The translations under genes were made by a program, and so were the position numbers. A stretch of DNA of 64,000 nucleotides from Candidatus Brocadiia bacterium (lineage in GTDB: Bacteria; Planctomycetota; Brocadiia; CAIUPP01): the NCBI GenBank assembly GCA_050015075.1, contig JBEKCB010000012.1, forward strand, positions 52,036-116,035, written 5' to 3'. How positions within the stretch are numbered: the first letter of the stretch is position 1; every line of letters begins with the position of its first letter. This document shows positions 11,225-60,127 of the stretch, one piece after another. The notes under the pieces are model-generated. The model saw only the letters and a program-made list of their open reading frames with translations, searched no databases and had not been told where the DNA came from.

Positions 11225-11620
11225 TCATTTGCCGTAGACGTGCACAGTCGCGGACTTGTAGATTCCGAGGATTTCGAGCAGCTCATAGTCGGCGTAGTAG
11301 ACCGTCTCGATGCCGGCGTCGCGCGCGGCGCTGTCGAGGGCCGCATCGCCCCAGCCGGCGCTCAGGATGTGGAAGGTGTCCACTATCGGCAGGATGAAGG
11401 CATGCACCGTTGTCTCGCCATGCTTCACGTCCGGTCCGCAAGGCACGCCGCCGGGCGCTTCCTCCAGACGGCAAGTCATCGGCGCGCGGTAGTGCGTGAA
11501 GATGAAACCTTTAGCCGGCGTCACCCCGATATGTTCGGTGGCGGCGCATCCGCCAAGGAACGATCCCGCTGTCCCGAGCGCCAGGAGCAGCAGACATCGA
11601 ATCGTTACGGACATCTCCAT
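11225..11620 (-). CDS. TRL-like family lipoprotein
   Basis: Lipobox LGGC; GFIFTHY, GWGDAALDSAARDAGI, ILGIY..VHVYG. Confidence 0.8.
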   Translation of the reverse strand: MEMSVTIRCLLLLALGTAGSFLGGCAATEHIGVTPAKGFIFTHYRAPMTCRLEEAPGGVPCGPDVKHGETTVHAFILPIVDTFHILSAGWGDAALDSAARDAGIETVYYADYELLEILGIYKSATVHVYGK

Positions 11621-11636
11621 TCTCCGATCCGCGCGA

Positions 11637-11954
11637 TCAGTCGCCGCGCACGATGGTGGTGTATCGCTGATAGAGGCCGAGGATGCTGAACATCTGGTAG
11701 TTCAACTGCTTGACTTCGCTGATGCCGGCATCGCGGGCGGCGGCGGTGACGGAGGAGTCGCCCCAACCGACCAGGAAGAGCAGCGTGTAGGTGGAGGCGC
11801 GCCCTTCCTTGCTGCCGATCTCTTTCCCGCCGAAGAGCGGCGCCTTCTGGTCGTTATAAAGAATGCCGCGCGGCGGCACGACCGGCGCCATCGCGCAGCC
11901 GGAAAGCATTACGCCGATCAACAGCGCCGCTGCGAGGAAGGTGTTTCGCCGCAT
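11637..11954 (-). CDS. TRL-like family lipoprotein
   Basis: Lipobox LSGC; GSKEGRAS, GWGDSSVTAAARDAGI, ILGLYQRYTTIVRGD. Confidence 0.85.
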   Translation of the reverse strand: MRRNTFLAAALLIGVMLSGCAMAPVVPPRGILYNDQKAPLFGGKEIGSKEGRASTYTLLFLVGWGDSSVTAAARDAGISEVKQLNYQMFSILGLYQRYTTIVRGD

Positions 11955-12138: not shown

Positions 12139-12167
12139 TTGACGCGGCCGGCCTTTGCCGTCAAAAT
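12139..12167 (+). promoter_or_regulatory. Sigma70-like promoter TTGACG-N17-CAAAAT
   Basis: Lies upstream of the AcsB-like gene and contains the inverted repeat TTGACG...CGTCAA. Confidence 0.55.
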
Positions 12168-12228
12168 GGATATCGGACGCGCGACCGTTGCGCATACCTC
12201 TGTCGCTGCCTATCAGGAGATGCAATTC

Positions 12229-14130
12229 ATGGACGGACACGGACCGGCCCGCGAGAAGAGTTCCCACACCCATTCCGCCGGCACGCACCTGCCCGCGGCG
12301 GCGCAAGGCATCCTGGAGCGCGGGCTCGACGAACTCCTCCGCCTGACCGACGGCATGGAATATCGCCCGCTGCCTTCGGACATTTATCCCTTCCCGCTCA
12401 CGCGCGCCGTCTACGCCGAGATGCCGTCGCCGGAATCCGTCCGCGCGGATGTCCGGTCGCGCCTGCGCTCCGATCCCGTCAGCGTCCTGGAATACGCCCT
12501 GGCGCTGCTCGAACTATACGAGTGCAACCAAGCCGACATCGCCGACCACTTCCTGGCCGACATGCCGTTCATCCACACCTGCTTCAACTCGAAGCGCTGC
12601 AACGGGTGGATCGCCCTGATGGGCGCGATGGACCGCACGGCGATGGAGACGGCGATCAACCGCCGCTGGCAATTCAAATTCTTCAGCGGCCGGCCGGCGC
12701 CGACCGGCATCTACGCCCTGCTGAGCATGCTCGCGCGATACGGCTTCGTGTACGGCCGCATCCCCTTCGGCGACGTGCACGCGCTCTCGCACTTCGTGGA
12801 GGAATTCACCCCGGGCCTCATCGTCGCGCACGGCGCGATGAGCGACCTCGAATTGACGCTCTCGCTCGCGGCGATGAAGATGGGCATTCCCGCGATCGTC
12901 CCGGCGGCCTATCCTTTCCCGCTCGGACGGTCCGTCCGCTCGGACGACCCGGAGGAAATCGCCGAGGCGGTCACCGTATTTCCGAACATCCGCAAGCTGC
13001 TCCCGATGCCCGAACTCCCGCCCCTGCCGGACTACTGCGACCCGGAAAACCAGAAACAGGAGTTCCGGCCCCATCTCACCTGGGGCGGAACGCCGGAGAG
13101 TTTCTGCGTGGTCCGCAAGGGCCGCGTGAAATCCACCGGTGTGCGCGTGCGCGGCAAGCCCAACGGCAACGTCGGGATCGTGGTGACGATCCAGGCGGAG
13201 CCGATGGACGCCTTCGACCGGCGCTACATCGAATCCATGATGCTCGGCGCGCTCTCCATGATCCGCGGCGTCAAGGCCAGGCTCGACGGCGACTCGTTCG
13301 CCATTGACCTTGCCGAGGGGACCGATCTCGCGCCCGTCCAGATCGGCGATACGCTGATCGCGACCATCCGCCGAACCTGGCCGCGCCTGGACCGGGTCCA
13401 GGTGGAGGTGATCTTCGATCCTGCCGAGCTGAAGCTGGCCGAGCCGCTCGTCCGCGCCGAGAAGGCGCAGCGTTCCCGCGAGATCGCCGCGGCCACCGAG
13501 GAGAACGCGGACCGCTTCTATCAGTGCGTCGGCTGCTCGCCCTTCGCCCCGGACCACGTCTGCTGCCTCACGCCCGAGCGCGCCCCGCAATGCGCGCGGC
13601 CTTACGAGATGATCAAGACCGGCGCGCTCTACGGCTTTGACGACGTGACGAACATCCACCACAGCGCGCTGCACCGCGAGATCAACTCGTTCCGCGTCGT
13701 TGAAAAAGGGCGCTGCCTGGACCTGGTCCACGGCGAGTGGGAAGGACTCAACGCCGCCGCCGCGCAGCTCAGCCGCGGGCGCACCACGCGCATCCGCCTG
13801 CACTCCCTCGAAGGATTTCCCCACACCGGCTGCGGCTGCTTCCGGATGATCATGTTCAAGACCGAGCTGCCCCGGCCCGGAATCGGCATCATGAACAGCG
13901 GCTACGGCGGACGCGCGCCGGACGGCCGGACCTGGCGCGACCTGCACTATGCCCTCGGCGGCAAGCAGACCGCCGGCCTGGCCGGCGCCGCGCCCTCGTA
14001 CCTGCATTCCCCGAAATTCCTCAAGGCGCACGGCGGATGGAGCAGCGTCGTGTGGGTCAGCCCCAAGATCGCCGCCGCCGCGGGCAATGCACTGCCCGAG
14101 GGCGTCGAGGTCGGTCCGGAGGACGGCTGA
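12229..14130 (+). CDS. Divergent acetyl-CoA synthase (AcsB/CdhC)-like Ni-Fe-S protein
   Basis: FYQCVGCSPFAPDHVCCLTPERAPQC, GEWEGLN, FPHTGCGCF and SPKFLKAHGGWSSVVWV match the ACS A-cluster domain. DRVQVEV matches the middle domain. AGGAG RBS precedes ATG 12229. Confidence 0.85.
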   Translation: MDGHGPAREKSSHTHSAGTHLPAAAQGILERGLDELLRLTDGMEYRPLPSDIYPFPLTRAVYAEMPSPESVRADVRSRLRSDPVSVLEYALALLELYECNQADIADHFLADMPFIHTCFNSKRCNGWIALMGAMDRTAMETAINRRWQFKFFSGRPAPTGIYALLSMLARYGFVYGRIPFGDVHALSHFVEEFTPGLIVAHGAMSDLELTLSLAAMKMGIPAIVPAAYPFPLGRSVRSDDPEEIAEAVTVFPNIRKLLPMPELPPLPDYCDPENQKQEFRPHLTWGGTPESFCVVRKGRVKSTGVRVRGKPNGNVGIVVTIQAEPMDAFDRRYIESMMLGALSMIRGVKARLDGDSFAIDLAEGTDLAPVQIGDTLIATIRRTWPRLDRVQVEVIFDPAELKLAEPLVRAEKAQRSREIAAATEENADRFYQCVGCSPFAPDHVCCLTPERAPQCARPYEMIKTGALYGFDDVTNIHHSALHREINSFRVVEKGRCLDLVHGEWEGLNAAAAQLSRGRTTRIRLHSLEGFPHTGCGCFRMIMFKTELPRPGIGIMNSGYGGRAPDGRTWRDLHYALGGKQTAGLAGAAPSYLHSPKFLKAHGGWSSVVWVSPKIAAAAGNALPEGVEVGPEDG

Positions 14131-14152: not shown

Positions 14153-15670
14153 TCACCGTTGCCACGCCATGAGCTTCGCGAAGAGGCCCTTCCAGAACGG
14201 CGTCAACCGCGCGCGGCTGCACGCATCGGCCGCGCGCTTGATCCCTTCGGCCTGGGTCGGATAGGGATGGATCACGCCGCCGATGGCCCGCAGGCCCAGC
14301 CCGCCGGCCATCGCCACGCTGATCTCGCTGATCATCTCGCCGGCGTGCGGGGCGACGATCGTCGCACCGAGAATCCGGTCCGTTCCCTCCCGCACCTGGA
14401 TCTTCACGAACCCTTCCGTCTCTCCGTCGAGGACCGCCCGGTCCACGTCGTCGAGAGGAACGCTGAAGGTGGCGACCGCGATCCCCTGCTCCTTCGCATC
14501 GCGCTCGTACAGGCCCACGTGCGCGATTTCCGGATCGGTGTAGGTGCACCACGGAACCGTCAGCGCGCTCAACCGCTTGCGGCCCCAGAAGAGGGCGTTC
14601 TGGATGACGATGCGCGCGCTGGCGTCGGCCGTGTGCGTGAACTTGTGGCTGAGGCAGACGTCGCCGGCGGCGTAGATCCGCGCGTTGGCCGTCTGCAGGC
14701 GGTCGTTGACGGCCACCCCGGCGCGGCTGTCGAAGCGCACGCCGACGCGCTCCAGGCCCAGGTCCTCCACGTTCGGCGCGCGGCCCGCGCCGACGAGAAT
14801 TTCGTCAACCGCGATGTCCTGCGGCCGGCCCTCGGTCACGGTATGGAGCACTTTTCCCGCCGCCGACCGCTCGACGCGCTGGACCTCGGTGTTGAGGAGC
14901 ATGCGGATTCCATCGCGGCGGAAGGACTCGGCGAGGATCCGCGCCGCGTCGGGGTCTTCACGCGCCAGGAACTGGCCGTGCCGCTCGATGATCGTCACCT
15001 CCGACCCGAGTCGTTGGAACGCCTGCGCCAGCTCGCAGCCGAGCGGGCCCGCGCCGAACACCGCCAGCCGCGCCGGGCGCTCCGTGAGCGAAAAGACGTT
15101 CTCGTTGGTGAGGAACCCGGCCTCCACTAATCCCGGCACCGGCGGATGCACCGCACGCGCGCCGGTGGCGATGACCGCCTTGCGGAAGCGCAGTGTCCGG
15201 CCTTCCACCTCCACGGCATCCGCCGAGACGAAGCGCCCCTGCCCGAAGAACAGGTCCACGCCGAGGCTGCGCACCCGTTCGGCGGAATCGTGAAGGCTGA
15301 TCCGGCTTCGCAGCCGACGCATGCGCTCCATCACCGCCGCAAAGTCCGCCTGCGGCCGGCCGTCTCGAACTCCATAGGCCTCCGCGTCGCGGAGACCGGC
15401 GACGGCGCGCGAGGAACGGATCAGGCATTTGGAGGGCACGCAGCCAACATTCAGGCAGTCGCCGCCGAGGAGATGACGTTCGACGAGCGCCACCTTCGCC
15501 CCCAGCCCGGCGGCGCCGAGCGCGGTGACCAGCCCGGCCGTGCCCGCCCCGAGCACCACGAGGTTATAGCGCGGCGCGGGCGCGGGATTGGCCCAGGCCG
15601 GCGGATGCACGTTGGCGACGAGCGCCTCGTTATGCGCGTCCCGCGGCAGCACCGCAACGGGTTCATCCAT
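14153..15670 (-). CDS. Class I pyridine nucleotide-disulfide oxidoreductase (mercuric reductase-like/LpdA family)
   Basis: GAGTAG, GGDCLNVGCVPSK, GAGPLGCE, IYAAGD, HPYPTQAE. No C-terminal Cys-Cys. Confidence 0.9.
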   Translation of the reverse strand: MDEPVAVLPRDAHNEALVANVHPPAWANPAPAPRYNLVVLGAGTAGLVTALGAAGLGAKVALVERHLLGGDCLNVGCVPSKCLIRSSRAVAGLRDAEAYGVRDGRPQADFAAVMERMRRLRSRISLHDSAERVRSLGVDLFFGQGRFVSADAVEVEGRTLRFRKAVIATGARAVHPPVPGLVEAGFLTNENVFSLTERPARLAVFGAGPLGCELAQAFQRLGSEVTIIERHGQFLAREDPDAARILAESFRRDGIRMLLNTEVQRVERSAAGKVLHTVTEGRPQDIAVDEILVGAGRAPNVEDLGLERVGVRFDSRAGVAVNDRLQTANARIYAAGDVCLSHKFTHTADASARIVIQNALFWGRKRLSALTVPWCTYTDPEIAHVGLYERDAKEQGIAVATFSVPLDDVDRAVLDGETEGFVKIQVREGTDRILGATIVAPHAGEMISEISVAMAGGLGLRAIGGVIHPYPTQAEGIKRAADACSRARLTPFWKGLFAKLMAWQR

Positions 15671-16412
15671 GGCCGTCTTTCCCTTCCTCAACGGCGGCCG
15701 GCTTGCCGCCCGCCGCCTGCCGCAGCGCCTTGCGCGCGATGCGCACGATGAGAACGCCGACCGCCACGGCGATGACCAGTCCGCCCCAGAACAAAATCCG
15801 CTGCGCTGCCGACTGCGGTCCGCCTCCGACCGCCGCGTCGGCCAGGCTGCGCGCCGCCGAACCGATGTACACGTACACGACCGTCCCCGGCAGCATGCCG
15901 ATCCACGAGGCCAGCGCGTAGCTGCGGAACCGCACGCGCGTCAAGCCGAAGGCGTAGTTGAGCAGGTTGAACGGGAAGACCGGGCTGAGGCGCGTCAGCA
16001 GGACGATCTTGAAGCCCTCGCGCCCGACCGCTTCATCAATTGCGGCGAACTTCGCGTTGCCGCCGATCTTCTTCGCCACCCACCCGCGCGCCACCGTGCG
16101 CCCGACCCAGAACGCCGCGCACGCGCCGAGCGTGGCGCCAATGGAGACGGTCACCGTGCCGAGGGCGAGCTTGAAGAGGAACCCGGCGCCGATCGTCAGG
16201 ATGGACCCGGGCAGGAACAGGAGGCACGCGACGATGTAGAAGAGCACGACGACCACCGGCCCCCAGAATCCCAGGCTCTGCGTCCACGCCAGCAGGGCGA
16301 GGAGATACTCCTTCAGCGGCAGGAACTTACCCGCCGCCACCAGGCCGGCGACCACCACGACCACGACGGCCACCCGCCACCAGGCGCTCGTGCCACCCTT
16401 GCTCTCGGGCAT
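15663..16412 (-). CDS. TVP38/TMEM64 (SNARE-associated, DedA superfamily) membrane protein
   Basis: FLPGSILTIGAGFLF, TRLSPVFPFNLLNYAFGLT, GMLPGTVVYVYIGS. Confidence 0.92.
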   Translation of the reverse strand: MPESKGGTSAWWRVAVVVVVVAGLVAAGKFLPLKEYLLALLAWTQSLGFWGPVVVVLFYIVACLLFLPGSILTIGAGFLFKLALGTVTVSIGATLGACAAFWVGRTVARGWVAKKIGGNAKFAAIDEAVGREGFKIVLLTRLSPVFPFNLLNYAFGLTRVRFRSYALASWIGMLPGTVVYVYIGSAARSLADAAVGGGPQSAAQRILFWGGLVIAVAVGVLIVRIARKALRQAAGGKPAAVEEGKDGHG

Positions 16413-16427
16413 GTCACCCTCGCGGTA

Positions 16428-17252
16428 TCATTTCTGTTCGTTCAGGGACCAGTCGTAGTCGAGGTAGGAAATCGAATAGTTCCCCGAGGACACGCGCGCC
16501 GCGTCCTCTTTGCCCAGATATCCGCTGATGAAGTGGAGCACCGCCCGCTGCGCGGCGGAATGATCGCCGTAGCCCTGGTCCACTCCGTACCTGGCCACGA
16601 AGTCCTCGCCGAACCACTTGAAGATCGAAGAGAGGTAAACCGTGCCGCCGTCCGCGGCGACGCGGAACTTCAGCGGGTTGGACAGGAAGCGCCTGGCCTG
16701 GTCGTCCAACTGGTCGCCGAGCCGGTCGCCCGCGTACGGCTCGTTGCGCAGCGGCGGGCAGCCCATGGCTGCGCAGACGAGCGCCATGTGGATGCGCGGC
16801 TCGTGGAACTCCTTGCGCAGCACTCCGTGCTCGATCCCATCCAGCGTCATCGGCTGGCCCATCACCGAGAACTGCAGCCCGTCCCAGGCTCCGCTGATCT
16901 GGCGGATGCTGTTCTTGGGGTAGCGCAGGCTGGTCAGGAACGAGGACTGGATCGGGTAGTGGGTGATGATCGCCTGCAGCGTGCACGCGTTGTACGCGTT
17001 GAGCCAGAAGGCGATCTTCGCCGGCTCCGTCCAGCCGTCGTAAGTCGCGCGGTTCAGCCCGGCGAGCGAGCTTACGAACGAATCGAGCTTTTCGCTGTGG
17101 GACTTGAGTTCTGCATAGTTCACCATACCGTTATCGTTCACGTACGTCTTGAGCGCGTCGGCGTAGTCGCCATAGGAAAAAGTCTGTGCCTGCACGGCGC
17201 CCGCGAGCGCCGCGACGACCACGAAAGCAGCGGCCGGGATTGAACGCTTCAT
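16428..17252 (-). CDS. DUF547 domain secreted protein
   Basis: Signal peptide; VNYAELK, AFWLNAYNA, TLDGIEHGVLR, EPRIHMALVCAAMGCPPL, SSIFKWFGEDF, YDWSLN. Confidence 0.92.
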   Translation of the reverse strand: MKRSIPAAAFVVVAALAGAVQAQTFSYGDYADALKTYVNDNGMVNYAELKSHSEKLDSFVSSLAGLNRATYDGWTEPAKIAFWLNAYNACTLQAIITHYPIQSSFLTSLRYPKNSIRQISGAWDGLQFSVMGQPMTLDGIEHGVLRKEFHEPRIHMALVCAAMGCPPLRNEPYAGDRLGDQLDDQARRFLSNPLKFRVAADGGTVYLSSIFKWFGEDFVARYGVDQGYGDHSAAQRAVLHFISGYLGKEDAARVSSGNYSISYLDYDWSLNEQK

Positions 17253-18497: not shown

Positions 18498-19931
18498 CTA
18501 CCGCAAACCCTGCTTGCCGCCCAACTCCGACTGGAGCATGAGATAATACGCCACGCTAGTCAGCTCGCCCCAGCCGTCCGGGTCCTGGGTCGCCTCGAAG
18601 TATTTCTGAATCTCGACGTCATAGGGCGCCAGCGAGGCCCACATCCGCAGAGTTTGGACTTTCGTGTCCTTGTCGGTGGCGAGCGTCACCTGGGCCGCCT
18701 GCGCGTCCTTCGGTTGGACAACAATCTTGCCCTTGCTCGCTTTCGCGTCCCACTGCGCGCTGACCACCTTGCCATTCAAGGCGCCAGGTCCCGCGGAAAT
18801 CGGCTCCGGCGTCTTCGAGTTCGGGAAGCAGGCGTAAACCTCTTTCGCCGTGCCGCTGGAAGGCTGGATCGAGATCTCCATTCCGGCCGCCGGAGCGCCG
18901 GGGCTGACTCCCGCCCAGGCGGTCTTGGCGGTGGCGATCAGGCGGGCGATGTCCGCCTTGTCGAAGACCAGGCCATGCTCGTAGGCGGCGACGATGCCGA
19001 GCGTGTCAAGCTGGTAATAGCCGCTGTTGGGATGGATGAACACCCCGTGCTTGGGGCTGCCGTCGGCCTTGTAATCCCACGGCCCGGCCGGCTGGTTGTA
19101 GTTCCAGATCTCGTAGGTGCCGTCGCCCTTGGGCGTCATCCGGCTCTTCATCACCTTGAACCATCTCTCGGCGTGCTCCTTGTATTCCGGCTTGCCGGTC
19201 ACGTCCCACATCGCGAGCATCCAGCGAGCGACCTCGTTCGCCTTGTTGTTCGGGTGCGAGGCGCCGTGCCCGGGGTTGTTCCGGGTGTCGAAATCAATCC
19301 ACTTTTTGTTGGCCGGGTCCAGCCCATACGGCATGACCACGGACATCAGCCCGCCGTCCTTGGTCTCGCGCCAGCCGCCGCGCTTCGCCCACTTCTCGTA
19401 AAGCTGCTCGGCGAGCTTGAGGTAGCTCTCGCCCTTCGCGCCGTACTTCTCCTTCAGCGCGGGGTTTTTGATCATCTCGCCGGCCATCAGGACGATCGGG
19501 CGGAACACCATCGCGTCGCTGAGCATGCTGTCGGCGTTGTAGTCGTCCATGTGGTCCACCCACGTGCCGGACGCGCCAACCCCGGGCCAGCCGAGGTAGC
19601 CGTCCGGCTCCTTGATGGCGCGCTTGATGAGGGAGTCCGCCCAGTCCACCATCAGATCCACGTACTTGGTGTTATGGGTGGCCATGTAGCCGTAGTAGAA
19701 ACCCTCCATGACGGGCGTCATTCCCCAGGCGATGTCCTCGCCCATGGCGCGGTCGCACGTGCGGTAGCCTCTGGCTTCGCCGGAGATATTCTTGTCCCAG
19801 CGCGCGAGCCACTCCTTTTGCTTCGCCTCGTCCATCTTCGTGAGCGTCATGGCCGGGGGCGCAGTTTGAGCCTGGCAGACAGCCGCCGCCAGCACAAGCC
19901 CGGCGGCGCACAGCGCAATCATCTTCTTCAC
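18498..19931 (-). CDS. Secreted hypothetical protein, predicted (alpha/alpha)-barrel, paralog A1 (with C-terminal insertion)
   Basis: Signal peptide; family motifs YYGYMAT, KEPDGYLGWP, HPNNKAN, PAGPWDY, AAYEHGLVF. The fold is inferred. Confidence 0.85.
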   Translation of the reverse strand: MKKMIALCAAGLVLAAAVCQAQTAPPAMTLTKMDEAKQKEWLARWDKNISGEARGYRTCDRAMGEDIAWGMTPVMEGFYYGYMATHNTKYVDLMVDWADSLIKRAIKEPDGYLGWPGVGASGTWVDHMDDYNADSMLSDAMVFRPIVLMAGEMIKNPALKEKYGAKGESYLKLAEQLYEKWAKRGGWRETKDGGLMSVVMPYGLDPANKKWIDFDTRNNPGHGASHPNNKANEVARWMLAMWDVTGKPEYKEHAERWFKVMKSRMTPKGDGTYEIWNYNQPAGPWDYKADGSPKHGVFIHPNSGYYQLDTLGIVAAYEHGLVFDKADIARLIATAKTAWAGVSPGAPAAGMEISIQPSSGTAKEVYACFPNSKTPEPISAGPGALNGKVVSAQWDAKASKGKIVVQPKDAQAAQVTLATDKDTKVQTLRMWASLAPYDVEIQKYFEATQDPDGWGELTSVAYYLMLQSELGGKQGLR

Positions 19932-19955
19932 GTTTTCTTCTCCTGGGTAAAAGCT

Positions 19956-21389
19956 CTACTTCGCCGCCAGCTCCGCCTGGAGCATGAGATAGTGCGGCGT
20001 CTCGCTGAGCCCGGCCCAGCTATTCGGCTCCTCGGTTGTCTCATAGTTCTTCTGAATCTCGACATCATAGGGGACCAGCCCGTGCCACATCCGCAGGAGC
20101 TGGACCTTGGTGTCCTTGTCGGTGGCGAGCGTCACCCGGGCCGCCTGCGTCTGCGCGGCCCCGGTCATGACGACGATCTTGCCCTGTTTCGCTTTATCGT
20201 CCCAATCTACGCCGAGCACCATGGCGCTAAAGGCGCCGGGGCCGGCGGAGAGCGGCAACGAGGTCATCGAGTTCGGGAAGCAGGCGTTAATCGCTTTCGC
20301 CTTGTCGCCGGCCGGCTGGACCGAGACCGCCATTCCGGTCATCGCGCTGCCGGGGCTGCCGTCCATCCAACTGGTCTTGGCGGTGGCGACCAGGCGCGCG
20401 ATGTCGGCCTTGTCGAAGACCACGCCATGCTCGTAGGCGGCGACGATGGCGCGCGTGTCGCCCCAGTAATACCCGCCGTTGGGATGGACGCCGATCCAGT
20501 GCTTGGGGCTGCCGTCGGGCTTGTAATCCCACGGGCCGGCCGGCTGCCAGTAGTTCCAGATCTCGTAGGTGCCGTCGCTCTTGAGCTTCATCCGGCTCTT
20601 CTGCACCTTGAACCATCGCTCCGCGTGGTCCTTGTATTCCGGCTTGCCCGTCACATCCCACATCGCTAGCATCCAGCGGGCGACCTCGTTCGCCTTGTTA
20701 TCCGGGTGCGAGGCGCCGTGACCGGGAGCGTTCCTCGTGTCGAAGCCGATCCATTTCTGGTTGGTCGGGTCCATCCCGTACGGCATGACCACGGAGATCA
20801 ATCCACCCTCGCCGGTCTCGCGCCAGCCGCCGCGCTTCACCCACTTCTCATAGAGCTGCTCGGCGAGCTTGAGATAGCTTTCGCCTTTCGCGCGGTACTT
20901 CTCCTTCAGCGCGGGGTTCTTGATCATCTCCCCGGCCAGCAGCACGATCGGGCGGAACACCATGGCCTCGCTGAGCATGCTGTCGGCGTTCCAGTCGTCC
21001 AGGTTGTCCACCCAACTGCCGGCCGCTCCCTTCGAGGGCCAGCCGACGAAGCCGTCGGGCTCTTTCACGGCGCGCTTGATGAGCGAGTCCGCCCAGTCCA
21101 CCATCATGTCCACGTACTTGGTGTCATGGGTGGCCATGTAGCCGTAGTAGTAGCCGTCCATGATGGGAGTCATTCCCCAGGCGATGCCTTCGCCCATCTC
21201 ACGGTCGCACGTGCGGTAGCCCTTGGATTCGCCGGAGATCTCCTTGTCCCAGAGGGTGAACCACTCCTTTTGCTTTGCCTCGTCCATCTTCACGAGGGTC
21301 ATGGCCGGGTTCAACGCCGTCTGCGCCTGGCAGAGAGACGCCGCGAGCACAATACCGGCGGAGCACAGCCCGATCATCATCTTCTTCAC
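19956..21389 (-). CDS. Secreted hypothetical protein, paralog A2 (with C-terminal insertion)
   Basis: Colinear with A1 over its full length; signal peptide. Confidence 0.85.
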   Translation of the reverse strand: MKKMMIGLCSAGIVLAASLCQAQTALNPAMTLVKMDEAKQKEWFTLWDKEISGESKGYRTCDREMGEGIAWGMTPIMDGYYYGYMATHDTKYVDMMVDWADSLIKRAVKEPDGFVGWPSKGAAGSWVDNLDDWNADSMLSEAMVFRPIVLLAGEMIKNPALKEKYRAKGESYLKLAEQLYEKWVKRGGWRETGEGGLISVVMPYGMDPTNQKWIGFDTRNAPGHGASHPDNKANEVARWMLAMWDVTGKPEYKDHAERWFKVQKSRMKLKSDGTYEIWNYWQPAGPWDYKPDGSPKHWIGVHPNGGYYWGDTRAIVAAYEHGVVFDKADIARLVATAKTSWMDGSPGSAMTGMAVSVQPAGDKAKAINACFPNSMTSLPLSAGPGAFSAMVLGVDWDDKAKQGKIVVMTGAAQTQAARVTLATDKDTKVQLLRMWHGLVPYDVEIQKNYETTEEPNSWAGLSETPHYLMLQAELAAK

Positions 21390-21460
21390 GCTTTCCTCTC
21401 CCGTTCTTCAATGGCCGCCCGCCAGGAAACGATCCCTGCGCCGAATCCCGCGGCAAAGCC

Positions 21461-22612
21461 CTACTTGCCGGCCAACTTCGCCTGGAGCATGAGATAGTGC
21501 GACAGGCCCAGCCCGCCCCAGTTATCCGGGTTCGCGCTTGCCTCGAATTCTTTCTGAATCTCGACATCATACGGAGCCAGCGCGGACCACCGCCGATTCG
21601 TTTTCTTGGAGGTGGCGATCAGGCGCGCGATGTCGGCCTTGTCGAAGACCAGGCCATGCTCATAGGCGGCGACGATGGCGGTGGTGTCAATCTGGTAATA
21701 CCCGCCGTTGGGATGGACGCCCACCCAGTGCTTGGTGCTGCCGTCCGGCTTGTAATCCCACGGGCCGGCCGGCTGATGGTAGTTCCAAATCTCGTAGGTG
21801 CCGTCGGCCTTAACCGGCATCCGGCTCTTCATGAGCTTGAACCATTTCTCCGCGTGTTCCTTGTATTCCGGCTTGCCCGTGACGTCCCACATGGCGAGCA
21901 TCCACATGGCGACCTCGTTGGCCTTGTTGTTAGGGTGCGAGAATCCGTGCCCGGGGTCGTTCCGCGTGTCGAAACCGATCCACTTCGTGCGGGTCGGGTC
22001 CAGGCCGTAGGGCAGGACTACGGAGATCATCCCGCCATCCTTGGTCTCCCGCCAGCCGCCGCGCTTCGCCCATTTCTCGTAGAGCTGCTCGGCGAACTTG
22101 AGGTAGCTCACGCCTTTCGCGCCGTACTTCTCCTTCAGCGCAGGGTTCTTGATCATCTCGCCGGCCATCAGGACGATCGGGCGGAACACCATCGCGTCGC
22201 TGAGCATGCTGTCGGCGTCGAAGGTCTTATCCAGGTTGTCCACGTCGGTGCCGGCTGCCGCGAAGGATGGCCAGCCGAAGTAGCCGTCGGGCTCCTTCAC
22301 GGCCCGCTTGATCAAGTGGTCCGCCCAGTCCACCAGCATATCCACGTACTTGGTGTTCTTCGTGGCCATGTAGCCGTAGTACAAGCCGTCCATGACGCCC
22401 GTCATCTTCCAGGCGATGTCCTCGCCCACGGCGCTTTCGCACACGCGGTAGCCCTTGACTTCGCCGGAGATATTCTTGTCCCAGCGGGCGAGCCAGTCTT
22501 TTTGCTTCGCCTCGTCCATCTTCGTGAGCGTCATGGCCGGAGGTGTGGTCTGCGCCTGGCAGACGGCCGCCAGCAAAAGCCCGGCAACGCACAGCCCAAT
22601 CGGCTTCCTCAT
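21461..22612 (-). CDS. Secreted hypothetical protein, paralog A3 (no insertion)
   Basis: Colinear with A1/A2 but lacks the roughly 90-aa insert; GGAGGAGG RBS. Confidence 0.85.
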   Translation of the reverse strand: MRKPIGLCVAGLLLAAVCQAQTTPPAMTLTKMDEAKQKDWLARWDKNISGEVKGYRVCESAVGEDIAWKMTGVMDGLYYGYMATKNTKYVDMLVDWADHLIKRAVKEPDGYFGWPSFAAAGTDVDNLDKTFDADSMLSDAMVFRPIVLMAGEMIKNPALKEKYGAKGVSYLKFAEQLYEKWAKRGGWRETKDGGMISVVLPYGLDPTRTKWIGFDTRNDPGHGFSHPNNKANEVAMWMLAMWDVTGKPEYKEHAEKWFKLMKSRMPVKADGTYEIWNYHQPAGPWDYKPDGSTKHWVGVHPNGGYYQIDTTAIVAAYEHGLVFDKADIARLIATSKKTNRRWSALAPYDVEIQKEFEASANPDNWGGLGLSHYLMLQAKLAGK

Positions 22613-36674: not shown

Positions 36675-37220
36675 TCAACCCGCGACCTTTTTCTCCGCCG
36701 ACTTCGCGCGGTACTTCGCCAGCAGGACCGGCACCTGCTCGGGCGTCATGCGGCCATGGACCTCGTTGTCCACCATCACGACCGGGGCCAGGCCGCAGGT
36801 GCCGAGGCAGCGCGCGGCTTCGAGGGTGAACATGCCGTCCTTGCTCGTCTCGCCGAAGTCCACGCCCAGTTCCGCTTTGAGGCGCGCCGCGATCTCGCTG
36901 CCGCCTTTGACGTAGCACGCGGTGCCGAGGCACGCATTGATGATGAATTTGCCCGACGGCCGCAGGCGAAAGAAGTGATAGAAGCTCGCGACGCCGGTCA
37001 CTTTCGCCGTCGGTATCTGCAGGAGTTGCGCCACGGCGTCCATCTGCGCGCGGCCGAGGTAGCCGAAATGCCCCTGCACTTTGTGCAGCACGCTGATCAA
37101 CTGGCTCTTCGGCTCGGGGCCGCGGAGCACCTCCTCGATGTATTTGACGATGGGCTCGGGCAGCGCGGCGCGGCTGACTTTCTCAACCTGGCGCCGGTTA
37201 TCGGTCGGGCTCTTGATCAT
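36675..37220 (-). CDS. hydC: [FeFe]-hydrogenase gamma subunit (NuoE-like, 2Fe-2S)
   Basis: LISVLHKVQGHFGYL, GVASFYHFF, CLGTACYVKG, RCLGTCGLAPV. Confidence 0.9.
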   Translation of the reverse strand: MIKSPTDNRRQVEKVSRAALPEPIVKYIEEVLRGPEPKSQLISVLHKVQGHFGYLGRAQMDAVAQLLQIPTAKVTGVASFYHFFRLRPSGKFIINACLGTACYVKGGSEIAARLKAELGVDFGETSKDGMFTLEAARCLGTCGLAPVVMVDNEVHGRMTPEQVPVLLAKYRAKSAEKKVAG

Positions 37221-38977
37221 CGGATCCCTCGTGGCAGTTTCGCCGAATAGGTGGTGTGCAGCAGTTCGCGCGCCTTCGGGGAGAAGACCTCGCCGAGGAA
37301 CTCGCTGTAAAGCTGCTGGACGGCCGGGTTCTCGTGAGAGCGGCGCAGGGTCTTGGCGCCGTCAATCGCGTAAAGCGCGCGGGCGCGCGCGGCGAGCAGG
37401 GCCGGATCAAGCGCCTTTACGCCGCGCGGCGGATACGGCTGGCCGCCGCCGCCGATGCAGCCGCCGGGGCAGGCCATGAGTTCGATCATGTGGAACTGCT
37501 TCTCGCCGCGGAGGACTTCGTCGAGGATGGTCTTCGCGTTGGTCAGGCCGTTGGCGACGCCGACGCGCAGGAGCTGGTCGCCGATCGCGACGGTTTCCTC
37601 GCGCAGCCCTTCCACCGCGCGGACCTCCTTGAATTCCACCCGGTGCCCGGGCTTGCCGGTGGTGAGTTCGCCGGCGGTGCGGAGCGTGGCCTCCATCACG
37701 CCGCCGGTGGTGCCGAAGATGTCGCCGGCGCCGGTGGCGATGCCGAGCGGCGCGTCGAATTCGCCGTCGGGCAGATGGACGAAATCAATCCCGTAGGACT
37801 TGATCATCCAGATCAGCTCGCGCGTGGTCAGGACGGCGTCGGTGTAGGGGACGCCCTTGACGAAATAGTGCTCGGGCCGGCGCGACTCGTACTTCTTCGC
37901 CACACAAGGCATGACCGCGACGACGTAGATGTTCGCCGGGTCCAGGCCGGCCTTCTGCGCGTAGTAGGTCTTGATCAGCGCCGACAGCATCATCATCGGC
38001 GAGCGGCAACTCGAGGCGTTCGGGATCAGTTCGGGATAGAACTTCTCGAGGAAGTTGACCCAGCCCGGCGAGCAGCTCGTCAGCATCGGCAGCGGGCCTT
38101 CGCCCTTGAGCCGGCGGAGGAACTCGTGCGCCTCCTCGACGATCGTCAGGTCGGCGGCCAGGTCGGTGTCGAACACGCGGTCCACGCCGAGCCGCCGCAG
38201 CGCGGTGACCAGCTTGCCGGTGGCCGGCGTGCCCGGCGGCAGCTCGAAACCCTCGCCGATGGCCGCGCGGATCGAGGGCGCGGTCTGGACGACGACGTGC
38301 TTCTTCGGGTCGGCGATGGCCGCGAACACCTCTTCCGTCGCGCGCTTCTCCAGGAACGCCGCGGTCGGGCAGACGTTGATGCACTGCCCGCACTGGATGC
38401 AGACCGAGTCGCGCATCGTGGAGCCGTGCGCGGGCGTGACGACGGCGGAGAAACCGCGCCAGTGGCGGCTGAGGTTGTACACGCCCTGGACTTCGGCGCA
38501 CACGCGCGTGCACCGGCCGCAGAGGACGCACTTCTCGGAATCGCGCACGACCGAATCGCTCTCGTCCTCGATCGCGAAGCGCTTGCGCTCGCCCTCGAAG
38601 AGCCGCTCGCGGACGCCGAACGCGTAGGCCAGGTTCTGCAGCTCGCAGTTGCCGTCGCGCTCGCAAGTCTGGCAGTCCTTCGGATGGTTGTCGAGCAGCA
38701 GTTCGACGATGTCGCGCCGCGCCTGCCGGATCTCGGGCGAATTGGTCTGGACGATCATCCCTTCCCAGACCGTCGAGCTGCACGCGGCCATGTAGAAGCC
38801 CATGTCCTTCACGTCCACGATGCAGACGCGGCATCCGCCGGCGAGGCTCAGGTCGGGATGGTAGCAGAGGCGCGGGATGTGAATCCCCAGCGTCTCGGCC
38901 GCCTCCATGATCGTGGTGCCTTCCTTGACGGAGATCTTCTGGTCGTCCAGAGTCAGCGCGATCATCTTCTTGCTCAT
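37217..38977 (-). CDS. hydA: [FeFe]-hydrogenase group A3 catalytic subunit
   Basis: H-cluster motifs TSCSPGW, MPCVAKKYE, ELMACPGGCIGGGGQP. N-terminal 2Fe-2S, His-ligated 4Fe-4S (HPKDCQTCERDGNC) and two 4Fe-4S motifs. Confidence 0.95.
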   Translation of the reverse strand: MSKKMIALTLDDQKISVKEGTTIMEAAETLGIHIPRLCYHPDLSLAGGCRVCIVDVKDMGFYMAACSSTVWEGMIVQTNSPEIRQARRDIVELLLDNHPKDCQTCERDGNCELQNLAYAFGVRERLFEGERKRFAIEDESDSVVRDSEKCVLCGRCTRVCAEVQGVYNLSRHWRGFSAVVTPAHGSTMRDSVCIQCGQCINVCPTAAFLEKRATEEVFAAIADPKKHVVVQTAPSIRAAIGEGFELPPGTPATGKLVTALRRLGVDRVFDTDLAADLTIVEEAHEFLRRLKGEGPLPMLTSCSPGWVNFLEKFYPELIPNASSCRSPMMMLSALIKTYYAQKAGLDPANIYVVAVMPCVAKKYESRRPEHYFVKGVPYTDAVLTTRELIWMIKSYGIDFVHLPDGEFDAPLGIATGAGDIFGTTGGVMEATLRTAGELTTGKPGHRVEFKEVRAVEGLREETVAIGDQLLRVGVANGLTNAKTILDEVLRGEKQFHMIELMACPGGCIGGGGQPYPPRGVKALDPALLAARARALYAIDGAKTLRRSHENPAVQQLYSEFLGEVFSPKARELLHTTYSAKLPRGIR

Positions 38978-39009
38978 CGTTCCACTCCCAAAGCGGCGAC
39001 GGCGCGTTG

Positions 39010-41028
39010 CTATCCGCGGCGCAGGCCGGCGCATTTCCCGGCGGGGCAGCGTTTCTCGACGACGTGCGCGACGTACTCGTCGCGGTAGTGCGTCAGCGTG
39101 CTGAGGATCGGGTTGGGCGCGTTGCGGCCGAGACCGCAGAGGCTGGCCTTGCGCATCAGCTTCGCCAACCGCTCCAGCCGCTCGATGTCCTCCGGCCGGC
39201 CCTGGCCGGAGGTGATACGCTGGAGGATTTCCAGCATGCGCTTGGTCCCTTCGCGGCAGGGCGTGCACTTGCCGCACGATTCGTCCTGCGAGAACGTCAG
39301 GAAGTACTTCGCGATGTCCACCATGCAGTCATCCTCGTCCATCACGATCATGCCGCCGGAGCCCATGATGGCCCCGACCTTGGCGAGCGTATCGTAGTCC
39401 ACCGGCGTATCGAGCAGCTTCTCCGGCACGCAGCCGCCGGCGGGGCCGCCGGTCTGGACGGCCTTGAGCCGCTTGCCGTTCGGCGAGCCGCCGCCGATGT
39501 CCACAACGATCTCGCGCAGCGTCGTCCCGATCGGAACCTCGACGAGGCCGGTGTGCTCGACCTTGCCGGCCAGCGCGAAGGCCTTCGTCCCGCCGCTGTT
39601 CGCCGTGCCGATGCGGCTGAACCAATCGGCGCCGTAATAGATGATCGCACCGATGTTGGCCAGCGTCTCGACGTTGTTGATGACCGTCGGCTTGCCCCAC
39701 AGGCCGCTCTGCGTCGGATAGGGCGGCCGGATGCGCGGCTCGCCGCGCTCGCCCTCGATCGAGTGGATCAGCGAGGTCTCCTCGCCGCAGACGAACGCGC
39801 CGGCGCCCAGGCGGATTTCGAGGTCGAAGCTGAAATCCGATCCGAAGATATTCGGCCCGAGGACGCCGTGCTTGCGGCACTGGTCAATGGCGTTCTGGAC
39901 GCGCTGGATCGCCATCGGGTATTCGGCGCGGATGTAGAAAAATCCGCGCTGCGCGCCGATGGCGTAACCGCCGATGATCATCCCCTCGATCACGCTGAAC
40001 GGGTCGCCCTCGAGCATGCTGCGGTCCATGAATGCGCCCGGGTCGCCCTCGTCGGCGTTGCAGATAATGTAGCGCACCGGCTCCTTCGCCGCGGCGGCCA
40101 TCTGCCACTTCTGCCCGGTGGGATAGCCCGCCCCGCCGCGCCCGCGCAATTTCGAGCGCGCGATCTCGCCGATCACCCATTTCGGGTCGCGCTTCTCCAG
40201 CACCTTCGCCAGCGAATGGAAGCCCTTGTAATGGACGTACTCGAAAATGTTGTCCGGGTCAATCACGCCGCTGTTCCGCAGCGAAATGCGGCACTGGCGG
40301 TTGAAGAACGCCACGTCGCCGTACAGGTTGAAAAACCGCTGGCTGAGCGTGTGCCCCTTCAGCCGCAGGCGCTCGACCGGCTTGTTCGCCAGGACGTGGC
40401 TCTTGACGATCTCGTCGAGGTCCTTCTCGTCGGCGATGCGATACAGGATGCGGCTCGGCAGGACGAGCAGGTGCGTGACTTTCCCCGATTCTTCGGGCCC
40501 GCAGAGTCCGAAGCAGCCGGCGGATAAAACGGCGCAGCGGCGCTCGTCGAGCCCGGCGGCGCGGAGCTTTTTCAGCAGAAGGCTGCTGAAGTTCTGCTCC
40601 AGGTTCCGCCCGCAGCGCTGGCCGGAGCAGAAGAGGAACTCCTGAAGCGGCAGCGCCTCGGCGAAGCTGTCGAGCACGTGGTCGAGCCGCGGCTTGCCGC
40701 CGAGGATGTGATCCGTGAAAATATCGTGGACGGCCTCGCGGTCCACGCGCTGATATTTCACCGGGATCTGGCCGGGCATCAGCACGCGGACGATCGGCTC
40801 GCAACTGCACCGGCCGGTGCAACCGGTCTGCCGCACGACGATATCCTGTCGGCCGGACGTGGCGATGTGCTTGCGGAATTCCGCCAGCACCTCCGCCGCG
40901 CCGGAGGCGTTCTCGCACGTCGCCGAGCCGACCGAGATGCGGATTTTCGTCGCATCCTCCCGCGCCGCCAGCGCGCGCTCGGCCTCGTCGGCGAACTTCT
41001 GGTACTGGATCGTCACTGGACTGTCCAT
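39010..41028 (-). CDS. hydB: [FeFe]-hydrogenase beta subunit (NuoF-like FMN/NADH subunit with two N-terminal thioredoxin-like ferredoxin domains)
   Basis: LRGRGGAGYPTG, CNADEGDPGAFMDR, GAGAFVCGEETSLI, ESCGKCTPCREG, LCGLG. N-terminal TGCTGRCSCEP and AGCFGLC. Confidence 0.92.
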   Translation of the reverse strand: MDSPVTIQYQKFADEAERALAAREDATKIRISVGSATCENASGAAEVLAEFRKHIATSGRQDIVVRQTGCTGRCSCEPIVRVLMPGQIPVKYQRVDREAVHDIFTDHILGGKPRLDHVLDSFAEALPLQEFLFCSGQRCGRNLEQNFSSLLLKKLRAAGLDERRCAVLSAGCFGLCGPEESGKVTHLLVLPSRILYRIADEKDLDEIVKSHVLANKPVERLRLKGHTLSQRFFNLYGDVAFFNRQCRISLRNSGVIDPDNIFEYVHYKGFHSLAKVLEKRDPKWVIGEIARSKLRGRGGAGYPTGQKWQMAAAAKEPVRYIICNADEGDPGAFMDRSMLEGDPFSVIEGMIIGGYAIGAQRGFFYIRAEYPMAIQRVQNAIDQCRKHGVLGPNIFGSDFSFDLEIRLGAGAFVCGEETSLIHSIEGERGEPRIRPPYPTQSGLWGKPTVINNVETLANIGAIIYYGADWFSRIGTANSGGTKAFALAGKVEHTGLVEVPIGTTLREIVVDIGGGSPNGKRLKAVQTGGPAGGCVPEKLLDTPVDYDTLAKVGAIMGSGGMIVMDEDDCMVDIAKYFLTFSQDESCGKCTPCREGTKRMLEILQRITSGQGRPEDIERLERLAKLMRKASLCGLGRNAPNPILSTLTHYRDEYVAHVVEKRCPAGKCAGLRRG

Positions 41029-58881: not shown

Positions 58882-60119
58882 CAGGCGTTCACCTCCTGGA
58901 CGAGGCCGCCGCCGGCCGTCTCCGGGCCGCGCGTCAGGATCAGCCGGCCGAGTTCCGGAACGCAGGAGGGAAGCTCCGCGACGAGAGGCCGGTCGAGCGC
59001 GATGACGACCTCGCCCAGCTCCGTCTCCTCAAGGCGCTCCGCCGGCGCTTCCAGCGTTTCCAGCGAGGCCGAATCCATCCGGCGCTCGATGGACTCGACC
59101 CTTCCGGGAATCTCCTGCGTCGAAAGGCGCACCTGGAGCGGTTCTCCCTTCCGGCAGGCATCGCCCGCCATCCAGAAGACGCTGGCGCGGAACCGGCTCG
59201 TCGGGCTCGGCAGCGTCCCCGCGCAGCCCACGTCCCCGCGCGAGGGCAACCGGGCGGAATCGAGCGCCAGCCCGATGCATTCGCCGCTGACCGCTTCGCT
59301 GCGTTGCTGGCCGAAGAGTTCGACGGCGGTCACTCGCGTCTTTAGGCCTGAAGGCAGGAACAGAAGTTCCTGCCCCGCCCGCAAGCGCCCCGATTCGATG
59401 CGGCCGACCAGGAGCTTGCGCCCATCGAGGGCGTAAACATCCTGAACCGGGAACCGCAGCGGTCCCTCGGCCGATCGCGAGATCGCCTGCAATGCATCGA
59501 GCGCTTCCAGAAGGATGGGTCCGTCGTACCAGTTCATGGCGTCGGAACGATGCTCGACGTTCTCGCCCAGCAGGGCCGAGCCCGGAATATACGACGCGGA
59601 AACCAGGCCCACGGCCTTGAGATACTGCCTTGCCGCTTCGGCCACGGCCTCGAACTGCGCGCAGTCATGATGGACTTTATCCATCTTGTTGATCCAGACG
59701 AGCACCTGCCGGATGCCCATGAGGGAAAGGAAATGGGCATGCCGCTTCGTCTGCTCGCGCACCCCTTCGCACACGTCCACCACCAGGACGGCGGCTTCGG
59801 CCTGGGCGGCGCCCGTGATCATGTTGCGCATCAACTCCCGATGGCCGGGCGCGTCTATGATGACGTAGTCGCGCCGGGGCGTTCGGAAGAAGGCCTGCGC
59901 GGTGTCAATGGTCATTTCATCCCGGCGCTCTTCCTGCAGGTGGTCCATCAGGTGTGCGTACTCCATTTCGCGCCCGCGCTCTTTGGAGACCTGCCGGATT
60001 TCCTCCAACCTCTCCGGCGCCACAGAGCCGGTGTCGCTGAGGAGCCGGCCGATGAGCGTGGATTTTCCGTGGTCGAGGTGGCCGACGATGACCAGCTTGA
60101 GGGTTTCCCGTTCCGGCAT
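58881..60119 (-). CDS. cysN: Sulfate adenylyltransferase subunit 1 (GTPase), no APS kinase fusion
   Basis: GHLDHGKSTLIGRL, TIDTAQ, DAPGH, NKMD, LRFPVQDVY; directly follows cysD. Confidence 0.9.
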   Translation of the reverse strand: MPERETLKLVIVGHLDHGKSTLIGRLLSDTGSVAPERLEEIRQVSKERGREMEYAHLMDHLQEERRDEMTIDTAQAFFRTPRRDYVIIDAPGHRELMRNMITGAAQAEAAVLVVDVCEGVREQTKRHAHFLSLMGIRQVLVWINKMDKVHHDCAQFEAVAEAARQYLKAVGLVSASYIPGSALLGENVEHRSDAMNWYDGPILLEALDALQAISRSAEGPLRFPVQDVYALDGRKLLVGRIESGRLRAGQELLFLPSGLKTRVTAVELFGQQRSEAVSGECIGLALDSARLPSRGDVGCAGTLPSPTSRFRASVFWMAGDACRKGEPLQVRLSTQEIPGRVESIERRMDSASLETLEAPAERLEETELGEVVIALDRPLVAELPSCVPELGRLILTRGPETAGGGLVQEVNA

Positions 60120-60127
60120 GTCCGTTC

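Follow-up and report, generated by a model that had tools for sequence, protein, structure and literature searches.

Analysis of a 64,000-nucleotide stretch of DNA (hereafter the window) from a Candidatus Brocadiia bacterium (Planctomycetota; assembly GCA_050015075.1, contig JBEKCB010000012.1) revealed a stand-alone gene for a 633-amino-acid (aa) protein related to acetyl-coenzyme A (CoA) synthase (ACS), in which the ligands of the A-cluster (Ni-Ni-[4Fe-4S]) are kept and the CoA-binding residues are lost. The ACS-like protein belongs to a conserved and apparently so far undescribed family of A-cluster proteins of anaerobes, and is very probably a functional A-cluster protein of some kind other than an ACS. 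A first-pass annotation had proposed a repurposed A-cluster protein acting outside the Wood-Ljungdahl complex. This proposal was strengthened, since the family (i) forms its own clade, (ii) is under purifying selection, (iii) has lost the CoA residues and (iv) lacks neighboring acs genes in all 24 copies analyzed.

Fold and domain architecture

The ACS-like protein is predicted to have the whole three-domain ACS fold. A confident AlphaFold2 model (149-sequence alignment; predicted local distance difference test (pLDDT) score 94.8, predicted template modelling score 0.90) was used in Foldseek and VIA-align structure searches, which matched all three ACS domains. Foldseek retrieved 1oao_C (E value 1e-38, 22% identity), and the structural alignment to 8cjc_B gave a Z score of 28.1 over 596 residues. 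The N-terminal A1 domain aligned with 9g03_D over 234 residues of the 291-residue chain (Z 22.9, root-mean-square deviation (rmsd) 2.6), which bears out the shortened bacterial-type N-terminal domain of the first-pass annotation, and A2–A3 superimposed on CdhC (9c0s_E; rmsd 3.1 over 352 residues). Segments 4–22, 184–205, 680–688 and 701–727 of canonical P0244 are missing, and the C-terminus is short, as had been described.

The best sequence match of the protein was CdhC (E 2.2e-35). A Pfam scan of its 633 aa gave a sole match, to PF19436 (aa 414–616, E 8.6e-34), and none to PF03598 (A2), PF18537 (A1) or PF03063. None of the NCBIfam ACS models reached its cut-off: NF040764 (167 bits, cut-off 800), NF007078 (164, 809), TIGR00316 (147, 356) and NF003379 (166, 372). 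A search of the ESM Atlas returned only canonical ACS clusters for the whole protein (0.87–0.89) and nothing for A1 alone, a result that shows neither novelty nor its absence.

The A-cluster ligands are retained and the CoA cleft is lost

Alignment to Moorella ACS confirmed that the motifs CVGC, HVC, PQC and TGCGC supply equivalents of all six A-cluster cysteines, as had been noted previously: C433, C436, C445, C455, C535 and C537 correspond to Moorella C506, C509, C518, C528, C595 and C597, and the adjacent F439 and H443 to F512 and H516. The six cysteines are present in 120 of the 122 members of the family (defined below), and F439 and H443 in all of them.

The cleft binding CoA presents a different picture. 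In the same alignment the columns of ERRIH and GLWHTGQR are occupied by ESMML and GVKARLDG, so that the degeneration of the middle-domain ERRxH and GxxHxxQR segments seen in the first reading stands. A structural study of C. autoethanogenum ACS (bioRxiv 10.1101/2024.08.05.606187) names Arg383, His386, Gly399 and Trp405 as acetyl-CoA-binding residues, which were mapped by spacing to Moorella positions 405, 408, 421 and 427. Within the family, Arg405 is found in 36/122 sequences (Arg still being the commonest residue in this column), His408 in 1/122, His419 in 0/122, Gly421 in 1/121, Arg423 in 1/122 and Trp427 in 0/122. For comparison, the 24 AcsB/CdhC-side rows of the tree described below, which were not filtered on any motif, contain Arg405 in 21, His408 in 18, His419 in 21, Arg423 in 22 and Trp427 in 12 cases; a further set of 31 canonical sequences had been picked on ERxxH, which makes its Arg405 and His408 counts circular. 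Neither ERRxH nor HxxQR was found in any of the 122 family members or in 15 more distant relatives. The cleft has not been replaced by another conserved site, as only 2 of its 24 columns reach at least 95% conservation.

The residues around the CO-binding site have also changed. The alcove of canonical ACS is formed by F229, I146, V149, G145 and F512 (PMC11321310), and the gating helix contains a hinge Gly (PMC12289521). Only F512 of these alcove residues is retained in the family, as F439. F229 is replaced by Y175 (Tyr in 122/122), I146 by F119 and G145 by C, V or A at position 118; V149 was assigned to K122 by its modelled contact with F439. The hinge Gly145 is absent from all 122 sequences, and two to three residues of the gating helix have been lost relative to bacterial AcsB.

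In the Ala222 column, 122/122 family members have Leu, Val, Met or Ile, compared with Ala in 19/23 canonical sequences. The Ala222, Ala265 and Ala110 columns all contain large hydrophobic residues (0/122 Ala), with the qualification that Ala265, Ala110 and Ala219 vary among canonical sequences too; the use of all four tunnel alanines as a diagnostic feature was dropped for this reason. The substitutions A222L and A265M block the CO tunnel in canonical ACS, and an A225L variant, matching A222L, is listed in the Protein Data Bank. Taken at the level of the alignments, the CO gate of the family is rebuilt and the residues for CoA binding and acetyl transfer are lost family-wide.

Gained residues and the predicted closure of A1 over the cluster

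The invariant residues gained by the family are K122, R123, W127, H184, H188, D330, D471, H478 and R567; Y175 is likewise new, polar and invariant. In the model, K122, R123, Y175, D471 and H478 sit where A1 closes over the cluster. Conservation of at least 95% was observed in 129 of 609 columns (aa 20–628), many of them at the A1–A3 interface. H184 and H188 are located on a modelled helix (aa 183–193) and are kept in 13/15 and 12/15 of the tier-2 relatives (see below). At least two His residues occur within the first 30 aa in 107/122 family members, compared with 0/31 canonical ACS.

To model the closure, A1 (aa 20–262) was docked against A2–A3 (aa 263–628), with the cubane and zinc riding along. 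A score of 0.81 was obtained (best control 0.00), with agreement of at least 93% of the contacts between runs and partner pLDDT of at least 93; the docking mark is reached by 116/157 solved complexes and 2/215 mismatched pairs. This pass may nevertheless come from likeness, since the two parts docked belong to a single protein that resembles closed ACS structures already solved. The predicted contacts bring K122 onto G435–F439 and F119 onto G536 and F439, while H477 and H478, which belong to a family-specific insertion of A3, grip residues 122–126 and the 255–257 linker. The gating-helix segment (aa 111–127) touches G435–F439, G536 and H477.

Distribution, selection and phylogeny of the family

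The homolog search gave 186 matches among 8000 scored candidates, and the best 120 of these 186 were used (51–87% identity, 563–683 aa). Together with the query and P0124 they constitute the 122-sequence family set, in which identities range from 43 to 89%. A representative search added more distant relatives, 15 near-full-length proteins (tier 2) and five others (tier 3); a profile search for such relatives yielded three proteins only. One distant relative, P0130, is named Chloroflexi. Plasmids and phages gave one match each, with identities (29.5% and 22.6%) far below the family level. Several members are labeled ACS beta subunit by public annotators.

One scan of GTDB representatives identified 23 loci, all in metagenome-assembled genomes (MAGs): 13 from Acidobacteriota, six from Planctomycetota, one each from Anaerolineae and Spirochaetales, and two unclassified. 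The closest copy among them (93% identical) is in another 'Candidatus Brocadiia' MAG. The gene is intact and of full length in 15 of the 23 loci, cut by contig ends in four, across an N gap in one and disrupted in three, by in-frame TAA codons (L007, L011) and frameshifts (L011, L022). Selenocysteine or recoding was rejected as an explanation, the in-frame stops being TAA at non-Cys positions. L012 and L018, which are contigs of one MAG, carry partial copies with overlapping residue ranges, representing paralogs or mixed strains.

The ratio of nonsynonymous to synonymous substitution rates (dN/dS) was 0.22, 0.21, 0.18 and 0.17 in the four pairs tested, and 0.07 and 0.13 for two flanking genes. 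These values point to purifying selection on the ACS-like gene, somewhat looser than on the two flanking genes, and speak against the decay that the first-pass annotation had named as a way in which its proposal could fail.

In a quick tree of 56 rows, a branch of length 1.06 separated the family together with tiers 2 and 3 from the 24 rows on the AcsB/CdhC side (Shimodaira-Hasegawa-like approximate likelihood ratio test support 100). A more careful LG+G4 tree of 30 rows, based on A2–A3 columns without the cleft and the insertion, and without fragments and most near-duplicate members, placed the family and its distant relatives apart from 15 AcsB/CdhC rows at 100/100. The phylogeny against AcsB and CdhC suggested in the first-pass annotation thus puts the family outside both radiations. 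The family branch joins near the three-domain CdhC-like proteins P0170 and P0181, themselves basal on the AcsB/CdhC side. Both trees are unrooted and remain compatible with an origin from within a CdhC-like lineage; the family may be a third lineage of deep origin, or may have evolved rapidly from three-domain CdhC-like proteins.

Variants of the A-cluster motif were observed at the margins of the clade and beyond it. All five tier 3 relatives (P0168, P0169, P0171, P0211, P0234) have lost both Ni-binding cysteines. These proteins, as well as P0158 and P0161, keep the four cubane cysteines and lack one or both Ni-binding ones, which suggests [4Fe-4S]-only versions. On the AcsB/CdhC side, at least one A-cluster Cys is missing from the alignment in P0269, P0233, P0226, P0216, P0224, P0258, P0259, P0264, P0231 and P0206, which are possibly further degenerate paralogs or alignment slips. 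Since some of these rows also lack one or both Ni-binding cysteines, degenerate ACS paralogs are not unique to the clade analyzed here.

A twin-arginine-like leader, RRxF[LI]K followed by a short hydrophobic stretch, was detected in 4/122 members (P0078, P0088, P0099, P0101) and not in the window protein. If these leaders are real, the proteins bearing them would be exported and could then use neither CoA nor CoFeSP (corrinoid iron-sulphur protein). The fragment P0129 also has the RRxF[LI]K leader, and three of these five proteins contain a tandem duplication of the A1 His-helix segment. No fusions were identified among the proteins of 1109–3165 aa (weak evidence). P0122, P0126 and P0138 have extra tails that look like frameshift or chimera read-through and were discarded, as was an 895-aa open reading frame (ORF) in L020 that reads across an N gap.

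Gene neighborhood

The window and the 23 loci (24 copies; 421,311 bases in total) were compared over flanks of up to 10 kb, with at least 4 kb available on both sides in 14 of the 23 loci. No Pfam match to carbon monoxide dehydrogenase (CODH), CdhD/CoFeSP, AcsE or CooC was found among 241 neighboring genes or the window ORFs scanned, nor a gene with a B12-binding domain among the 241 neighbors, and a tblastn search for the CooS and CdhD domains detected nothing in the 421,311 bases. The statement that genes for CODH, CoFeSP, AcsE and a Ni chaperone are absent from the window was therefore upheld for the ORFs scanned and, for the CooS and CdhD domains, by tblastn. A conserved operon partner was sought and rejected: apart from the family itself, no neighbor cluster was present in more than 5 of the 24 sources, and most sharing was between related genomes. 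The supplements of PMC7038595 and PMC8067304 list the MAGs, and neither acs data nor, for one named host MAG, a pathway row was found there.

UroD-like genes were identified in 4 of the 23 loci and in the window, and none near the 13 Acidobacteriota loci; those of different lineages share 23–28% identity and are not orthologous. A link to the two UroD/MtaA-like genes near the window gene, called speculative from the outset, is thus not supported. An MttB homolog is present in L004. In L005 (5514–12820) and L012 (675–5293) the ACS-like gene shares a run with an aldo/keto reductase gene and the gene for a BadF/BcrAD-type activase; it lies on different sides of the reductase in the two genomes. 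A Crp/Fnr-family regulator gene (two genes upstream) and a PNPOx-like gene, on the same strand, are found within approximately 1.5 kb upstream in L009, L015 and L021.

Features of the window gene and its surroundings

The coordinates of the gene and its elements are summarized in Table 1.

Table 1. Predicted features of the ACS-like gene in the window.
Feature	Residues (aa)	Position	Strand	Evidence
Promoter, sigma-70-like, TTGACG-N17-CAAAAT		12139..12167	+	Consensus match only
Ribosome-binding site AGGAG, 9 nt 5' of ATG		12215..12219	+	Read from sequence
Coding sequence, ACS-fold A-cluster protein (P0001)	633 in total	12229..14130	+	ORF, domain and structure searches
Disordered His-rich N-terminal tail, candidate Ni-binding arm	1-20	12229..12288	+	pLDDT < 50 for aa 1-15
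A1 (prismane-type) domain, shortened	20-257	12286..12999	+	Structural match to 9g03_D; deletions relative to P0244
Rebuilt gating helix and alcove	111-127	12559..12609	+	F119, K122, R123, G126, W127 invariant; N125 119/122
Segment with L168 at Ala222, Y175 at alcove Phe229 and D182-H184-H188-E191 helix face	167-192	12727..12804	+	Alignment, model
A2 (middle) domain, fold retained	263-424	13015..13500	+	A2-A3 superposition on CdhC
Degenerate CoA/acetyl-transfer cleft (positions of Arg405, His408, His419, Gly421, Arg423, Trp427)	335-358	13231..13302	+	Alignment
[4Fe-4S] ligands C433, C436 (bridging), C445, C455, plus F439, H443		13525..13593	+	Alignment
Family-specific insertion (D471, D472, I476, H477, H478)	468-487	13630..13689	+	Modelled latch onto A1
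C535-G536-C537, distal/proximal Ni-binding motif		13831..13839	+	Both Cys 122/122, Gly 108/122

Judging by the arrangement of its neighbors, which are divergent upstream and convergent downstream, the gene is monocistronic. The stand-alone gene of the first-pass annotation is thereby supported, while the promoter assigned to it depends on a single sigma-70-like match (1 site found, compared with 0.2 ± 0.4 in shuffled sequences), which alone is weak evidence. Inspection of 22 upstream regions revealed no common FNR, CooA, Rex or NikR box, only scattered matches with 2–3 mismatches. Rfam gave no matches in the window and only three tRNAs across the 13 of 23 loci scanned.

Upstream of the gene are two TRL-family lipoprotein genes (11225–11954, minus strand), replaced by other genes in L014. 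Downstream, genes for a PRK06370 MerA-like FAD oxidoreductase, a VTT/TVP38 membrane protein and a DUF547 protein stand in a row (14153–17222, minus strand). Three tandem paralogs with signal-peptide-like N-termini, followed by two beta-helix proteins, are encoded both in the window (18498–22612, minus strand) and in L014 (8293–12443); two of the three window paralogs were scanned and gave no Pfam match. Genes for a trimeric NADH-dependent [FeFe]-hydrogenase (36675–41016, minus strand; order B, A, C; NF040763 above its cut-off) mark an anaerobic fermenter. At 58881–60922 (minus strand), cysD precedes a cysN-like GTPase gene whose product scores about equally with the EF-1alpha and CysN models.

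Proposed function and alternatives

The best reading is that of a single-subunit enzyme of anaerobic heterotrophs that would no longer make acetyl-CoA. We infer the nickel content, substrate and reaction of the ACS-like protein, and tentatively favor, ahead of each alternative below, a stand-alone A-cluster enzyme whose closed, polar pocket would accept a small C1 ligand (most likely CO), with turnover linked to water and protons, and without CoA, CODH or CoFeSP. According to the model, A1 would close over the cluster and be clamped by the new His-His insertion of A3, with K122, F119 and Y175 standing in for Val149, Ile146 and Phe229, which make the canonical alcove hydrophobic. The His-rich tail may help to load Ni where no CooC/AcsF neighbor is present. 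CO from solution, rather than from a CODH tunnel, would bind the proximal Ni in the closed and now polar pocket, and turnover may proceed by water/proton-coupled chemistry, either by conversion of CO to CO2 or formate or by hydrolysis of a Ni-acyl to give a carboxylate. Canonical ACS is able to bind dissolved CO even if its tunnel is blocked (PMC12289521). The D182-H184-H188-E191 helix face could serve as a proton relay or an accessory metal site. CODH has Lys and His near its Ni site and a row of helix His for CO2 binding and proton relay, and the ACS-like protein recalls such a design. A plausible role would be the scavenging of trace CO in fermenters that depend on CO-sensitive hydrogenases; the [FeFe]-hydrogenase encoded in the window is in keeping with the proposal.

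Several observations weigh against this proposal. A single cluster with no gene for an electron-relay partner is awkward for a redox role, and no conserved neighbor in the window or the 23 loci points to CO. H184 and H188 are not among the listed interface contacts of the model (the end of their helix touches P441), and docking gave contact lists only, with no side-chain directions; K122 may just cap the cubane loop. The closed model is no proof of a lock, because canonical ACS adopts a closed state too. The twin-arginine-like leaders are confined to one subclade, of which TIGR01409 scores P0088 only, below its cut-off (11.9 < 16.7). The gene is dispensable, given the three disrupted loci out of 23, and, judging by the five distant relatives without both Ni-binding cysteines, a di-nickel site is not required for the wider clade to persist.

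It is conceivable, if rather doubtful, that the family represents a third, deep branch of ACS in which one polypeptide uses the A-cluster for C1 chemistry free of CoA and of partners, some members being periplasmic; CO oxidation or hydration, or protonolysis of methyl-nickel to methane, are examples of what such proteins might catalyze.

An unlikely alternative, close to the suggestion of the first-pass annotation, is methyl or acyl transfer with other partners, in which a corrinoid protein other than CoFeSP would supply the methyl group. The Ni-methyl or Ni-acetyl would then go to an acceptor (a small thiol, phosphate or amine) or end as methane after protonation. The intact ligands and F512 equivalent would allow this, and canonical ACS methylation survives alcove changes (PMC11321310). 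The UroD/MtaA-like genes of four loci and the window, the MttB homolog of L004 and the BadF/BcrAD-type activase genes of L005 and L012 would suit it as well, but the UroD neighbors are the non-orthologous ones described above, none of which was found near the Acidobacteriota copies, and neither a B12-binding domain nor CdhD was found among the 241 neighbors or by tblastn. Methylation of canonical ACS requires the open state and is impossible in the closed one (PMC12289521), whereas the modelled insertion adds A1–A3 contacts. Exported members would have no contact with corrinoid proteins. The A1–A3 latch and the twin-arginine-like leaders speak somewhat against large cytoplasmic partners.

A non-catalytic metalloprotein, using the A-cluster for binding only, whether to sense CO or redox state or to store Ni/Fe-S, is improbable. 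The His-rich tail and additional invariant His, the orphan gene with its sporadic loss, the survival of tier 3 relatives without the Ni-binding cysteines and the Crp/Fnr-family genes of three loci are all compatible with such a role. Against it, no DNA-binding or signaling domain was found, nor a fusion among the longer proteins (weak evidence), no regulatory box is shared upstream, and the many columns of at least 95% conservation, concentrated in good part at the A1–A3 interface, are more typical of an active site.

A true acetyl-CoA synthase or decarbonylase that binds CoA differently, with acsA, acsC, acsD and acsE elsewhere in the genome, is very unlikely. The three domains, the superposition on CdhC, the predominance of Arg in the Arg405 column and the public annotations agree with it, and the search for acs genes covered the flanks of the copies. 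Nevertheless, five of the six cleft residues are each present in at most one family member and the cleft is variable, the scores fall far under the NCBIfam cut-offs (e.g. 167 against 800 and 147 against 356), the clade is separate even without the cleft and insertion columns, and none of the 24 copies has an acs gene nearby. A decaying, functionless acsB relic, to which the stop codons and frameshifts of L007, L011 and L022 might point, is hardly credible in view of the low dN/dS in 4/4 pairs, the 47 invariant columns among 112 sequences from several phyla, and the 15 intact loci, with four more cut by contig ends only.

Comparison with known A-cluster proteins

Bacterial AcsB (Moorella 1OAO; Carboxydothermus 7ZKJ/1RU3; C. 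autoethanogenum 6YTT/9G7I) shares with the ACS-like protein the three-domain fold, the six cysteines, Phe512 and His516. The ACS-like protein differs in lacking the CoA/acetyl-transfer residues, the hinge Gly and acs neighbors, in its A1 deletions, short C-terminus and separate clade, and in the gain of a polar alcove (Tyr, Lys), the A3 insertion and the His-rich tail. Archaeal-type CdhC (the beta subunit of acetyl-CoA decarbonylase/synthase; 9C0S chain E) has in common with it the A2–A3 core and an LHS...PHT signature ahead of the CGC motif; however, CdhC lacks A1, keeps ERRxH and HxxQR and works in a five-subunit complex, whereas A1 is part of the ACS-like protein and no partner genes lie close to it. 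The monomeric ACS of Carboxydothermus hydrogenoformans (1RU3, 7NYP), which is CODH-free and obtains CO from solution, is canonical in sequence, keeps the cleft and uses CoA and CoFeSP, unlike the ACS-like protein. A1 is homologous to the Rossmann fold of Ni,Fe-CODH (CooS/CdhA; Z 14–20), but the C-, B- and D-clusters are absent, Lys and His are at other positions and PF03063 is not matched.

The accessible text of a recent ACS phylogeny (bioRxiv 10.64898/2026.07.07.736967) distinguishes AcsB, CdhC, prismane-CdhC and two extension variants, and describes CODH neighbors for two of these groups. Its prismane-fused CdhC likewise has a CdhC-like core with an N-terminal prismane domain; unlike the ACS-like protein, its gene is described as clustered with those for CODH and another CdhC, and its C-terminal extension is retained. 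That text mentions neither Planctomycetota nor Acidobacteriota hosts, nor an orphan clade without the CoA site, although its figure or extended data could hold members. No description of the clade was found in the accessible literature searched, two peat papers included, a scope that leaves out most subscription journals. Among canonical ACS, several sequences (P0265, P0235; P0209, P0218, P0208, P0256; P0210; P0237; P0195, P0198) contain LAGLIDADG inteins or are fusions, the partners being CdhD, a pyridine nucleotide-disulphide oxidoreductase, a caspase domain and CODH.

Significance

To our knowledge, the A-cluster has been found in one enzyme with one reaction. Judging from its sequences, the family probably employs this ancient metal centre in a second reaction besides acetyl-CoA synthesis. 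If the deep-branch reading above were true, it would be the first natural second reaction of the A-cluster, and might even preserve nickel chemistry older than CoA. A widespread natural homolog with the cluster ligands but with a Tyr/Lys/His alcove and no CoA cleft would provide a test of the role of the protein shell in Ni-CO, Ni-methyl and Ni-acyl chemistry, and as a single gene it should be easy to express. Counting such matches as acsB or cdhC would falsely imply carbon fixation in bacteria of peat, sediments and digesters.

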